From Candidatus Firestoneibacteriota bacterium (GTDB lineage Bacteria > Oederibacteriota > D2-FULL-39-29 > JBBTED01): a DNA stretch of 33,239 nucleotides. The stretch is from contig JBBTED010000042.1 in the NCBI GenBank assembly GCA_038042445.1, positions 1-33,239 of the forward strand, written 5' to 3'. A program made the position numbers. This document shows, piece after piece, positions 12,001 through 18,000 of this stretch (its first letter is position 1; every line of letters starts with the position of its first letter).

Positions 12001-15000
12001 AGTTTATTTTTAAGTTCTAATGATTCTTTAGACTCTGTTTCTTTTTCTTGTTTTTCAGAAAAGATTTCAGTTTCCGTTTGCACCTGATTCTCTTCTACTT
12101 CTTTTATTTTTTTATCTTCATTATGCAATATTTTTTTCAAATTTTCTCCATTCTAATGTTTCTTTAAATCCAATAATAAGTCAATTAATTGTTTTTTTAT
12201 ATTTTTTAGAACCTCTGTCAGCTCAACTTCTCTGAAATTGAATTCCATTTGCTTGCCAGTTTTTTTCTCATCCAGCATTTTTTTCTTTGCACCAGAAATT
12301 GTAAATCCATCCTGATGTAATAATTTTTTAATTAATAATACTGTATCTACATCTTTTTTTCTATAAACTCTCTGTTTCCCACTTGTTTTCGTAGGACTTA
12401 AAGACTTAAATTCAGATTCCCAATACCTTAAAACATAAGACTTTACTCCTGCAATTTTACTCACTTCTCCTATTGTGTAAAACAATTTATCTGGAATTAT
12501 TTCCATATTCACCTAACCTATGCTCCTAATATCAGATTTCAATTCTTTGCTTGCTTTAAAAAAAACAGTCTTCCTCTCTGGAAGATCAACTTTTGCACCT
12601 GTTTTAGGGTTTCTTGCAATTCTCGCACGTTTAATTTTAACATTAAAACTTCCAAATCCTGTAATATGGACCTTTTCATTTTGCTTTAATGTATTCACTA
12701 TTGTATCAATTATTTTTTGCACAGATATATTGGCTATTTTTCCAGTAACACCTAATTCTTCAACTTTTTTTGCCAAATCCGCTTTTGCCACAGTAATCAT
12801 ATTCTGCCTCCCAAAAATGTCTCTTCCTCAGATTTCACTGGCCGTGACATTAAATCTATTACCGCAGTCTTTGCAAGTTTATCTTCAAAAAGAACAGAAT
12901 AAACTTCACTCACTATTGGCATATCTACTTTTATTTTTTTTGATAATACATACGCAGATTTTGTTGTGGGAACACCTTCAGCAACCATTTCCATTTTCTG
13001 CATAATTTTTTTTAACGTTTTGCCTTTACCCAATAATTCCCCAACTGCCCTATTCCTACTGAATTTACTCATACAAGTAACTATCAAATCACCCATACCA
13101 GAAAGCCCTGCAAAAGTAGATTTTTTTGCCCCCAATTTTCCCCCTAACCTACTCATTTCAGCAAGTCCACGAGTCATCAATGCTGCTTTTGCATTATCGC
13201 CCAACCCAATACCATCTATAATACCTGTTGCAATAGCAATAACATTTTTTAATGCCCCACCTAATTCTACTCCTATTATATCAGAATTTGTATAAATTCT
13301 AAAGTGTGAAGTTTTAAAAATATTTTGTATTTTATAGGAATTTTCTTTTTTAAAAGCTGAACATACGACTGCTGTTGGAACATTTTTTGAAACTTCTTCT
13401 GCATGACTTGGACCGGATAAAACTACTAATCGATTTTTAATACCGGGAATTTCCTGCAATAATATTTCAGACATTCTGCACAAAGTATCATTTTCTATAC
13501 CTTTTGTTACACTTACTACCAAAACATCAGAAGATTTAATCACCTCATTAATTTTTTTAACTGTATTTCTAAAAAATTGAGATGGCACTGCTAACACTAT
13601 TAATTCCACCTTATCCAATGCCTCTTTAAAATCAGATGTAATAATTATTCCTTTCGGTATAGACATATTAGGAAGAAACTTAACATTTTCACGTTTTTTA
13701 TCCAAAAATTTTGCATAATCCGGAAAATGCTCCAAAATAGAAACTCTATTCCCTTTTTTATGTAAAAGTATTGCTAATGTTGTCCCCCAACCCCCTGCAC
13801 CCACAACTGCAATATTCATTTGAGATCCTTCGCTAAAGTTCAGGATGCCCCTTCGGGGCATTTTAAATTTTTATTTTATTTTCAGCCCCTGAAATCAATC
13901 GTTTTATATTAGGTATATGCTTATATATAACCACAGCAAAAACTATAAGACCAAATACCACATATATTCTTGGTTCCGCAAAAACTAAAAGTAAAAATGG
14001 ATATAACAAAGCACAAAACATAGAACCAACAGATACATATTTAGTTATAGCAACGATTATAATAAATATAATTATTACTACAAACATAACATAAGGTGTA
14101 AGACCAAAAAAAACACCAGCACTTGTTGCTACACCTTTACCACCTTTAAAACTCAAGAACATTGTCCAATTATGTCCTATAATTGCAAATATTCCAACGA
14201 TTATTTTAATTAATTCCTGATTTACAACAGAATCAGTTCCTATTATAGATAATTGTGAAATAAATACAACTGCAATTAAACCTTTTCCTATATCAATAGC
14301 TAAAACAAATAAAGCAGGCAATAAACCTAATGTCCTATAAACATTTGTAGCACCTATATTTTTACTTCCATATTCACGTATATCTATACCCTTAAGAATT
14401 TTGGCAGCAATGAAACTTGTAGGTATAGAACCTATAATATAACTTAATACTATAACTATTACAGTATTACTTATTATTTCCCAATGCATATTAATAATCT
14501 ATAATAGTAAATTTGTGTTGCATATGTCAAATTATTTTTTAAATAGCTGTGGAAATGGATGGAATGGAAACGAATTTTACTATTTTATTTCTACAATATC
14601 TCCTGCTTCAATTGGTTTCTCAACTCTTAATCTTCTTGCTTCCGAAGCTTCAGGACCAACATATTCTACAATAATAGTAGCTATATATTCTTTCTTTTGC
14701 ATTAAGATTCTACCCTGTGCATCTTTTACAACTTCACCTAATTTACTTACTGTTAATTCCTGACCTATTTTTATATTATCCTGTGCACCTAAATTAATTA
14801 TTACTTTGTCTTCTTTTACCTGTAATACCTTGCCAACTATTGCTATCCGAACAGCAATTTTATTGCTTAACTGGCTAACTGCATCAGGCAGTTGACCTTC
14901 ACTGCTACATCTTTGCTGTTCTGCTAATATTATTTCCCCTTTTTCAACCTCAATAAAACGTATATTGATAATATATTGCTCACCAAGTTTATCTAAACTC

Positions 15001-18000
15001 CCAAGAATCATTATCTTCACATTAAGTAGCCTTCCTACTTCAATTGCACACTCTGTACTCGTACATCCTGTTTGCTGTAATGTCTGCTCTTTAAGTATCG
15101 CATCCATTTTCTCGCGCTCTAACACAATAAAACGTCCACTGCGGAATAATTCTGTACGCAAGAGATTTGACACTGTTGCTGATACATAGTCTGAAACATT
15201 ATTTGACACTAAATTAATTATAGCTATTGATAACTTTTCTGTAGAAAAGATGATTGGTCCCTCTGGCCTTATTGTAATTTTTTCTTCTACTTTTTTTATT
15301 TCTTCAGCTCTGCCAAATTGCCAATTAACTCCTATGCGATGACTTCCAAAAGTTTTAGATATAGAATTTATTGGATATGAAAATCCGTAGTCAACTCCAC
15401 CATCACCGAAAATATAGCTTGTTCCAATTGCAAATTCCCTTGAATTTACACCTGTCCTTAGTGCAGTTGTTTTGTCACTATTGTACCATTCTATTCCACC
15501 TGCTATATTTATATCTTCTTTACCATTAACCTTTTTATTCTTGTATGAAACATCTATTATAGGTATAAAATCACCTAATTTGTATGAACTCCCAATTCTT
15601 ATTTGCAATGGTAATTTACCTAAAGTATCATTAGCTAAAGATAAATTTGGCTCATTAATATTTTCACCTACCATCCCAATTGATAAATCAGATGTCAATT
15701 TTAAAAGCATTCCGACATCTATACTTGTACCTGTTTTAGCATATCCATTTTGGTTAAATAATGGATCTAACTTCGCATATTCGTTTTCAACATAAGCAAG
15801 ACCCACTAACTTTCCAGTTATACCTAACGATAAAACATCTTTACTTATATCCTTCGCATAAGAAACTGTTGCCATATACTCACGATATAAATCTGAGTAA
15901 AAATACATATAACCAACTCCGAGTGTTCCAATATTACCTAATGGCTGAACATAGCCTGCAAAACCCTGATTCAAATTATCATAATCTAATCCTAAATATG
16001 GCTTAGTATATATTAAATTAATCTCAGGATTTTTTAACTGTGATATTCCTGCAGGATTCCATAATATAGCACTAACATCATCGCTAATAGCAGTCCAAGC
16101 TCCTGCTAATCCTGACGCCTTTACACCTATTCTATCTTCAAATGCAGCTCTTGATGATATTGCATAAGTTAAAATTAAAATAATCAATCCTGTTTTTTTA
16201 AACATTTCATTTCTCATCATAGTTTTTCATGTCATTCCTGTGAACAGACTGTGTCATAATTCTAAATTTCATTGATTTATCGGGCTTGATAAATCAAGCC
16301 CCTACAATCATCAATAAATTTAAATATTTTTGTAGGGGTCGGATTTATCCGACCCGGAAAAACCGATTTTTGTAGATTATGACACAGTTGTAGAACAACA
16401 TTTTACCTCGCTAAAATAACCGTGCCACGTTTTTTTATTATTCCTCCGATTTCCAATTGCCACAAATAAAGCCCATTTTCTAATTTATCTCCATTATCTG
16501 CTTTGCCATCCCAGGAAATATTGTTACTTAAATTTCGAACTAACAAACCATTTCTGCTAAATATCTTAATTGTTGTAATTTCATTATTCGGATTATCAAA
16601 ATAAAAACTAACAGAATCATTTGCTCCATCATCATTCGGTGTAAATGGATTTGGATTTGCAAGGACTTCTCCACCATAATAAGTGCTCGCACTTGTAACT
16701 GCCTTTATTGCATATAATCCTGTTTTGGATACAAATGCAGCCATAAATTTATTAATTGTGTCTATATCACTTTTGACTTTTTGCCATTTAATACCATCAT
16801 AATAATATATTGTAAGCTGTTGTGCAGCATTAGCCTCATCAACATCTGTATTAGCAATTTTGCCGTTTGTAATTGTGTAATAAATAGTTATAGGGACAGG
16901 TTTTAAGAAATTTTCCAATTTGCTTCCTGTTGATGCATCTGTCATCTGAAAATTGTATGCAATACCATCAGTAACAGTTGTATCTCTTGTTATAATTATA
17001 TTTACATTTTTATCTACTGAATCAGGTGGCACAACTATTTTGGTTTTACTTCCATCATTCGCTTCAACTGTTATTGTTTCTGTTGTATTTGTCGCTATTA
17101 CAATTGAAACTAAAGCAAAATCTACTGTTGTCGTTTGATTTGCTGAAACACTAATTCCAGTTTTTGTCTGTGTAGTATAACCACTTGCAGACACACGAAC
17201 ATCATAAGTCCCTGATGCTAATGCAATTGAATAATTACCAGTTGAATCTATGCTTGTAGATGATTTTAAAACTCCTATTTGTAATACTTCAACTGTTACC
17301 CCTGATATCGCCGTTGTCCCATCAGCCTTTGTAACCTTGCCAACAATTGTCCCAGTAGTAGTTGTTGTAGTTGTTATACCTGTCATATCCGCCTGAATTT
17401 CCGCCTGTGAAAGAGCCCGAGAGTAGATTTTTACTTCGTCAATAATACCTATAAATCCTCTAGTATCACCGTCATAAGGATTATCTCCAATATCTTCTCT
17501 AATAAAGTTAGTATCCCAATTGAAATTTTGAGAGAATGATGAACTTGCTACTTCAACACCATCATAAAACATTTTTACTATTGCTCCATTATAAGTTAAT
17601 ACAAAATAATGCCAACTCCCATCACTATAATTTACATTATATTCTACAATACCATTTGTTGCTCCTACATGTATTTGACAAGAAATATATTTTTGTGGAG
17701 AATCATTTAGTAATATTATAACATCATTTGAAGGTGCTCTATGCCTATATAAATGTCCTCCATTGTTGTATCCACCCTGTGGTGTAGATGTCTTAAACCA
17801 CATTGATATAGTAAAGTTATTATTAATCCCACTAAAAGGTTTTGAAATATTAATACCACTGTTCCCATCAAAATTTATTGCACCATTAACTTTACCTGTT
17901 GTCCAAGTGGCGCCAGATATTGTTCCGTTATTACTACTACCTGAACTATCCGCAGCAGTACTTCCACTTGCTTCATCAAATTTCCAATACCCAACTAATG

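Follow-up and report, generated by a model that had tools for sequence, protein, structure and literature searches.

Absence of the 50S-assembly GTPase Der from a class of Oederibacteriota, with an operon scar and candidate changes in 23S rRNA

The plsY–gpsA operon and the former position of der

The window—the whole stretch of DNA analysed here—comprises 33,239 nucleotides of contig JBBTED010000042.1 (assembly GCA_038042445.1) from a Candidatus Firestoneibacteriota bacterium (GTDB lineage Oederibacteriota; D2-FULL-39-29; JBBTED01). An earlier survey had reported an intact series of plsY, gpsA, HU/IHF-family and MerR-like genes, with a PorV/CsgG-like gene 90 bp from plsY; we recovered this arrangement at the same positions, with all of these genes on the minus strand (Table 1).

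Table 1. Features of the window around the plsY–gpsA operon
Feature	Coordinates	Strand	Remarks
MerR-like regulator, final gene of the conserved operon	12153..12512	-	Pfam MerR_1; kept in the class and in G074
HU/IHF-family nucleoid protein	12513..12800	-	PF00216
gpsA, glycerol-3-phosphate dehydrogenase	12797..13861	-	Probable start 13819; in 12/13 class genomes
plsY	13863..14489	-	TIGR00023 over cut-off; preceded by der in other classes
90-bp gap, former der/plsY boundary	14490..14579	.	Without der remnant
PorV/PorQ-like barrel fused to CsgG-like and FlgT_C domains	14580..16220	-	Genome-specific block
Secreted Kelch-LamG protein, T9SS type-B-like C-terminal domain	16403..19000	-	Genome-specific block
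533-aa protein: signal peptide, Pro/Glu/Lys-rich linker, probable barrel	19143..20744	-	Genome-specific block
HTH gene and MNT/HepT toxin–antitoxin pair	20916..22154	.	27% GC; genome-specific block
pgsA-like CDP-alcohol phosphatidyltransferase	22188..22694	-	Left flank of the der deletion; adjoins plsY in 9/9 class loci
GAF-HD and GAF-GGDEF genes, NUDIX gene between	22706..26173	-	Upstream anchors of the operon, conserved across the class

The junction between plsY and the PorV/CsgG-like gene is not a mis-join, because it is spanned by contigs from two sequencing runs in separate studies (X3, positions 13922–15247; X5, 14230–14787). A search of positions 14490–22187 with a Der profile gave no match (best E = 1.6). 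The 533-aa protein has no Pfam and no NCBIfam match and falls into no known family.

Outside the class, der directly precedes plsY, as the survey had stated from fewer loci, in all 30 of the top-scoring loci, and the order pgsA–der–plsY is found in the nearest relative (G074) and in two further named loci (L099 and L113). Within the class, pgsA directly adjoins plsY in all nine loci that have both genes, with a gap of 0 or −8 nt. The same scar is present in a class-like metagenome contig (L275); a metagenome scan with a MerR alignment recovered one class-like locus among the 80 matches listed. The survey's suggestion that an unrelated gene stands in the place of der therefore does not hold: the slot is empty in nine other class genomes, and the PorV/CsgG-like gene closes a 7.7-kb block that separates pgsA from plsY and was observed in this genome alone. 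It is not a der replacement. In a GpsA tree with 29 of 80 named loci, the position of the class was not recovered, and the GpsA of the window did not cluster with the other class GpsA proteins.

Der was thus deleted from an ancestral pgsA–der–plsY–gpsA–hup–merR operon, most parsimoniously in a single event on the stem of the class, and pgsA and plsY were left overlapping. The block of secreted-protein and toxin–antitoxin genes came between these two genes later, in this genome.

Der in the class and in its relatives

The phylum set consisted of 99 genomes, 13 in the class and 86 others; all are bins and none is closed, and the class bins, which come from uncultured bacteria, are 1.7–3.0 Mb in size. 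With TIGR03594 (cut-off, 306.7 bits), no class genome reached the cut-off, and at E ≤ 1e-48 none of the 13 matched, versus 81 of the other 86 (76 over the cut-off). The highest class score, 151 bits, belongs to an MnmE. The survey had named MnmE as the best hit throughout; this is true of 11 class genomes, and in G003 and G011 the best hit is HydF. All of the top-scoring class matches that were classified are single-domain GTPases such as these, and second matches of 420–460 aa, which are Der-like in length, proved to be HydF in 10 of 10 cases examined. A profile built from 25 Der proteins of the phylum, including the most divergent, gave class scores of no more than 136 bits. No tandem TRAFAC G domains were found in a single chain, as all 26 class hit frames examined carry at most one G1 motif, and a motif scan of G000 found no protein with two G domains and no extra or circularly permuted GTPase. 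In G000 alone, a KH-only profile from the Der proteins of the phylum was used in search of the C-terminal KH-like domain and reached a best E of 0.28; in the other 12 class genomes this region was covered by the full Der profile.

The chance that incompleteness would remove one gene from all 13 genomes is approximately 1e-14, or 2e-6 when only the best genome of each family is used. The class is monophyletic (SH 1.0; SH-aLRT 100), and a placement of G000 outside it was rejected (AU p < 1e-50). The class-wide absence that the survey described is thus upheld, and more strongly than was first claimed, given that the class is monophyletic and carries the pgsA–plsY scar; we regard the loss as almost certainly real. 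That Der is there but unseen, whether through excessive divergence, division into two genes or consistent loss in binning, is highly improbable. Every genome is a bin, G000 itself is without tuf, ffh and the alpha operon, and KH-only searches can fail, since the Der of family f5 was missed by PF14714 at E ≤ 1e-5. However, even the most divergent or incomplete genuine Der proteins score 213–305 bits and split halves 170–353, all above the class maximum; no class hit frame examined has a second G1 motif; uL1 was found in 12 of the 13 same bins; and the operon scar requires no assumption about binning.

Other classes of the phylum carry a canonical Der (EngA/YphC; GD1–GD2–KH) in a der–plsY–gpsA operon, and the proteins of f5, f10 and G074 have around 30% identity to a typical phylum Der, compared with 42–56% among the others; the KH region is shortened in f5 and f10. 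The suspicion that f5 may also have lost der was unfounded, as Der is present in four of its five genomes. In the three f5 proteins scored, it has two G1 motifs, 294–306 bits over the whole model and a short KH region (69–75 aa), and at locus L074 gpsA lies downstream of der. G101, a bin of 1.0 Mb, has no der match. A nested series of (class + f5) + f10 was rejected (AU p = 0.011); the best tree joins the class, G074 and f5, which would give a single uL30 loss, and three alternatives were not rejected (AU p = 0.14–0.21; 5,000 replicates).

Assembly factors and 23S rRNA

The survey had listed uL30 and the hibernation factor HPF as further losses of the class. Both are missing from all 13 genomes, but neither loss is class-specific: uL30 is also missing from f5 (0/5) and G074, and HPF from f5 (0/5) and f10 (0/2), so that both losses occur in Der-positive relatives. 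The reported retention of uL1 (12/13) and ObgE (5/5 class genomes tested, and G000) was borne out, and the class also retains bL9. EngB and Era were already gone from much of the phylum (Era is present in 38 and EngB in 18 of the 99 genomes), which rejects a loss of either together with Der as a module, because their absence extends well outside the class. The class lacks EngB/YihA as well as EngA, and RbgA was found in none of five class genomes tested; ObgE is the sole such 50S GTPase found. Strong PF01728 matches, sought for RlmE, are confined to G000 and G074. A comparison of conserved columns found no class-specific change in uL1, uL2 or uL15, and in uL16 only K14R; no conserved gene of unknown function adjoins obgE or rplI in the eight loci listed.

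Contrary to the statement that no rRNA is assembled, a full 23S rRNA is available for 4 of the 13 class genomes; for G000 the statement stands as regards 23S rRNA. All four share U1940C and U1944C in the H71 bulge, which sits beside the A loop, and changes in H77 next to U2111. The changes at the L1-stalk head are G2112A, U2113G, A2169U/G and G2123A–C2175U. Helices H68–71, H76–78, H89 and H93 are retained at full length, and H78 has its full 8 bp in all four sequences.

Der-contact helices account for 324 of the 1,503 invariant columns, and 10 of the 21 class-fixed changes lie within them (p = 0.007), or 7 of 15 events once paired changes are collapsed (p = 0.027), a modest enrichment tested post hoc against eight comparator 23S sequences, six of them from the phylum outside the class. 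The helix borders used for this count are assumed. In six Der-positive lineages, the corresponding counts were 0/5, 1/30, 2/14, 3/51, 10/58 and 11/83. The A2112/G2113 variant is not specific to Der loss, because a published alignment also shows it in 6 of its approximately 97 non-CPR rows (counted by eye), and the 23S changes may postdate the loss of der, because G000, which has no assembled 23S rRNA, is the earliest branch. G101 keeps U1940, U1944, G2112 and U2113. A scan of viral contigs for the H71 motif gave 17 matches, mostly non-rRNA.

Proposed 50S maturation without Der

Der is found in 99.2% of non-CPR RefSeq genomes, its deletion is lethal in Escherichia coli, and it is one of two GTPases that suffice for one-step ribosome reconstitution (PMC13278734). 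In the placeholder series of YihA, EngA and ObgE (bioRxiv 10.64898/2026.02.15.706057; PMC4245960; PMC11754645), the class keeps ObgE only. EngA GD1 touches U2111 and EngA keeps h68–69 open (bioRxiv 2026.02.15.706057), the YphC KH domain holds H69 and H71 immature (PMC11754645), and pseudouridine at 1940, 1944 and 2111 blocks assembly of the E. coli 50S subunit (PMC5449589).

With moderate confidence, we consider a single loss of der, followed by late 50S maturation on ObgE alone and helped by point changes in the 23S rRNA, to be the best explanation. Der would act as a placeholder and chaperone and not as a structural part, the point changes would retune two elements on which it acts (the H71 bulge and the L1-stalk head by U2111), and slow growth would probably tolerate the leftover inefficiency. 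Against ObgE-only maturation, ObgE alone yields no active E. coli ribosomes in vitro (PMC13278734). That the 23S changes contribute causally to coping without Der is a tentative suggestion. A stronger version is decidedly unlikely: that two to six changes (C1940/C1944; the H77 platform by U2111) remove the kinetic trap that Der manages, as natural bypass suppressors of the otherwise lethal deletion, a state attained in steps (uL30 loss, Der divergence, Der loss) by genomes of ordinary size and perhaps convergently in Omnitrophota and CPR.

Alternatively, the loss may be uncompensated, with slow-growing anaerobes tolerating 50S maturation that is slow and error-prone, and with the 23S changes drifting neutrally after release from Der contacts. 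We rate this as rather unlikely, though credible. The phylum sheds assembly factors freely, as the counts for Era and EngB show, Der had already diverged in f5, f10 and G074, relaxed constraint would likewise place changes in Der-contact helices, and tolerance has been proposed as one option for CPR (PMC12641178). However, U1940 and U1944, both upper-case in the Rfam consensus, change jointly in each of the four 23S sequences, and the available text of PMC5449589 gives them as sites of RNA–RNA assembly in E. coli and not as Der contacts. Displacement by an unrelated protein in the placeholder role, in keeping with Der being harder to dispense with in vitro than the other GTPase (PMC13278734), is improbable given the der slot without a gene in 9/9 loci, the RbgA and G000 motif-scan results, and the neighbourhoods of obgE and rplI.

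The loss of Der in the class resembles that known from CPR/Patescibacteria (Paceibacteria, Dojkabacteria, WWE3 and Microgenomatia; Amikura et al. 2025, PMC12641178), where der is also lost at class level and obgE kept, uL30 is absent and era often absent; the state der−/uL1+/H78+ seen here is the first step in Dojkabacteria according to that survey. CPR genomes are 0.5–1.5 Mb in size, whereas the class is larger and not part of Patescibacteria, its loss is nested in a mostly Der-positive phylum with a visible deletion scar, and the class genomes examined keep uL1, bL9 and full H78, with point changes instead of helix loss. The framing of the loss as the first outside CPR must be withdrawn: Seymour et al. 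(2023) had already dropped TIGR03594 as a systematically missing marker in Omnitrophota, where it is infrequent and phylogenetically constrained (PMC10066038); the supplement has no TIGR03594 row among the rows listed. Omnitrophota are likewise a non-CPR lineage, but the available parts of that paper give the absence only as an adjustment of completeness markers, do not connect it to ribosome assembly, synteny or rRNA, and concern the bulk of a phylum whose ultra-small cells are largely host-dependent. Because it is mostly Der-positive, the phylum studied here is probably distinct from Omnitrophota. A literature search conducted largely outside subscription journals did not turn up any account of Der being lost in this lineage. 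The new elements are the nested loss with its scar, the presence of Der in a close relative, and rRNA candidates that can be tested.

The 2025 survey took Der-less repertoires to be peculiar to CPR and to signal early divergence, and argued that the core is hardly alterable once established (PMC12641178). The nested loss, the scar and a single-contig Der-positive relative show that der can go late, in ordinary-sized genomes. As Der is a GTDB bac120 marker that is truly absent, completeness estimates that count it would be slightly low for the class. Intact uL1, bL9 and helices make the comparison unusually clean, and it provides a short list of rRNA changes with which to probe the function for which Der is essential.

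Absence of Der across the class

The survey's finding that der is missing class-wide was confirmed. TIGR03594, the Der profile, finds no match over its cut-off in any of the 13 class genomes, and at E ≤ 1e-48 the count is 0/13, compared with 81 of the 86 other genomes of the phylum; a profile built from 25 Der proteins of the phylum, its most divergent ones among them, left the class result unchanged. True Der proteins score 170–553 bits with TIGR03594, even as divergent, partial, or contig-end- or frameshift-split copies. Of around 120 weak rows in the class, we classified 30, including all top-scoring rows, as MnmE (11), HydF (10) and HflX, IF2, YchF, LepA, BipA or ObgE (the rest). 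The remainder, at ≤75 bits and spanning about one G domain, look like FeoB, HflX, Obg-type and translational GTPases, judged by length and by the sequence of G000, the genome that contains the window. Absence from G000 (32% GC) alone would be weak proof, because tuf, ffh and the alpha operon are also missing there. uL1 was recovered from 12 of the same 13 bins, and the computed probability of 13 misses through bin incompleteness is negligible. The class has lost Der.

The deletion scar and the window locus

In all 30 best-scoring loci from outside the class, der lies immediately upstream of plsY; among 80 named loci of other bacteria, 42 contain both der and gpsA (flanks of up to 10 kb). The class order is mutL-miaA-hflX-GAF/HD-(GAF/GGDEF)-pgsA-plsY-gpsA-hup-merR, with pgsA and plsY abutting or overlapping (spacing of 0 or −8 nt) in 9/9 class loci that have both genes; the other 3 of the 12 genomes are interrupted by contig breaks or gave no gpsA match. 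The single-contig genome G074, which is the nearest relative of the class in the ribosomal-protein tree (SH 0.95; SH-aLRT 75), has the order pgsA-der-plsY-gpsA-hup-merR; none of the other 30 phylum loci showed pgsA within 1.5 kb of der. The class forms a monophyletic group in which G000 branches first, and a single deletion of der is therefore the simplest reading.

The window is present in groundwater sequencing runs. Its operon is intact from plsY onward, and 90 bp separate plsY from the end of the preceding PorV/CsgG-like gene, as the survey described; this junction is spanned by contigs from two studies (X3, from the same study as the possible source runs, and X5, from another). The proposal that this unrelated gene replaced der did not hold. 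The gene lies within 7.7 kb between pgsA and plsY, together with toxin–antitoxin, HTH and secreted-protein genes, and no der remnant was found in this interval. Because pgsA abuts plsY elsewhere in the class, the gene is most simply a later arrival. One 533-amino-acid secreted protein in the window, without a Pfam or NCBIfam match, neighbours a CTD-bearing Kelch–LamG protein and a PorV-like barrel.

Coordinates of features in the window, in other G000 contigs (C) and in extracted loci (L)
Feature	Location	Remark
plsY-gpsA-hup-merR	window	minus strand
pgsA	window 22188-22694	
Secreted protein	window 19143-20744	
thiS + thiG	window 32110-33147	single 345-aa frame; thiG identified by eye
Divergent Der of family f5	L072:4308-5582; L073:8220-9491; L074:7840-9135	KH region cut to 69-75 aa
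ObgE of G000	C87:53434-54723	429 aa
rimP + 5' part of nusA	C81:43885-48786	tandem duplication upstream of intact rimP-nusA-infB-rbfA operon
rpsP-KH protein-trmD	C2:49200-50516	rimM missing in between; clean rimM gap
pgsA overlapping plsY-gpsA-merR	L096:8783-11331	Ratteibacteria record; der absent
Group I intron in 23S of G012	L163:2528-2816	~299 nt; H69 loop, E. coli position 1917 (RF00028, 64.7 bits)

Assembly factors and 23S rRNA

ObgE (5/5 class genomes tested, and G000) and uL1 are retained, as reported. uL30 and HPF are indeed gone from the whole class (0/13 each), but not as class-specific losses: uL30 is also absent from family f5 (0/5) and G074, and HPF from f5 (0/5) and f10 (0/2). rpsE is closed up on rplO in all six class loci examined. 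Era (38/99) and EngB (18/99) are patchy over the phylum; bL9 is present in 5/5 class genomes tested, and RbgA was not found in five tested. ObgE is around 335–340 amino acids long in families f2–f4 (L270–L274), shorter than in G000, and most of the class therefore lacks its C-terminal extension.

Families f5 and f10 and genome G074 have the most divergent Der proteins. Family f5, suspected of having lost der, carries a highly divergent copy; Der may be on its way out in this family, which also lacks uL30 and HPF. Family f5 may or may not be kin to the class, so a stepwise path to Der loss is suggestive only.

No rRNA is assembled for G000, as noted previously, but four other class genomes have a complete 23S. 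Helices H68–71, H76–78, H89 and H93 have normal lengths, so the Der-less route of CPR bacteria, which involves loss of H78 or uL1, was not taken. Compared with E. coli and six out-class sequences, the class has 21 fixed substitutions at otherwise invariant columns, 10 of them in H64–71 or H76–77 (G1770A, C1830U–G1975A, U1940C, U1944C, G2112A, U2113G, G2123A–C2175U and U2195C); A2169 is also altered, to U or G. This exceeds expectation (p = 0.007; by events 7/15, p = 0.027) in a post hoc test with assumed helix borders, and six Der-positive lineages show no comparable excess. Two further observations count against a link to Der loss: in a published alignment, the H77 variant is also carried by 6 of about 97 rows from outside CPR and by 7 CPR rows, and the class-type changes are absent from G101, a possibly Der-less bin. 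The four class 23S sequences (L160–L163) also have a 17-nt deletion of the H98 region at 2789, retained in the six out-class sequences, which carry a 19–36-nt insertion near position 548 that the class lacks or has only in short form. In the intron-bearing 23S of G012, the internal loop of H89 is unusual (2468G, 2469C, 2481U).

Proposed compensation and precedents

Der is described as a temporary placeholder and chaperone (PMC4245960, PMC11754645). Pseudouridine at 1940, 1944 or 2111 is reported to block E. coli 50S assembly (PMC5449589), and EngA is described as contacting U2111 through GD1 and holding h68–69 open (bioRxiv 10.64898/2026.02.15.706057). In vitro, heat and magnesium steps could reportedly stand in for Der, but ObgE alone could not (PMC13278734). 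Deletions of obgE and yihA are described as evolvable in Streptococcus sanguinis, with a duplication of the der-containing region in one obgE suppressor population (PMC11275930). We favour a model in which the 50S subunit would mature by ObgE only, with the changes in H71 and H77 making this easier, and infer that the rRNA may thus compensate for Der loss. The main rival is plain tolerance of the loss; relaxed constraint would give a similar 23S pattern.

According to Amikura et al. (PMC12641178), der occurs in 99.2% of genomes outside CPR and in 38% of those within it; their set from outside CPR is drawn from RefSeq and therefore covers mostly cultured phyla. Seymour et al. (PMC10066038) left out TIGR03594 because it is systematically missing in Omnitrophota; Der loss outside CPR was therefore already published, as a methods remark. 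The loss outside CPR thus stands as an observation, not as a first case; we found no report for this lineage in the literature searched. Loss of uL30 is described as common (bioRxiv 2021.01.31.429008). The Ratteibacteria record L096, from a 1.0-Mb bin with no TIGR03594 match at E ≤ 1e-48 and a 23S that retains U1940/U1944, is a lead to another independent loss.

The class-wide loss of Der is real. It gives a natural knockout of an essential assembly GTPase that is both clean and nested, and part of its value lies in rRNA candidates that are open to testing.
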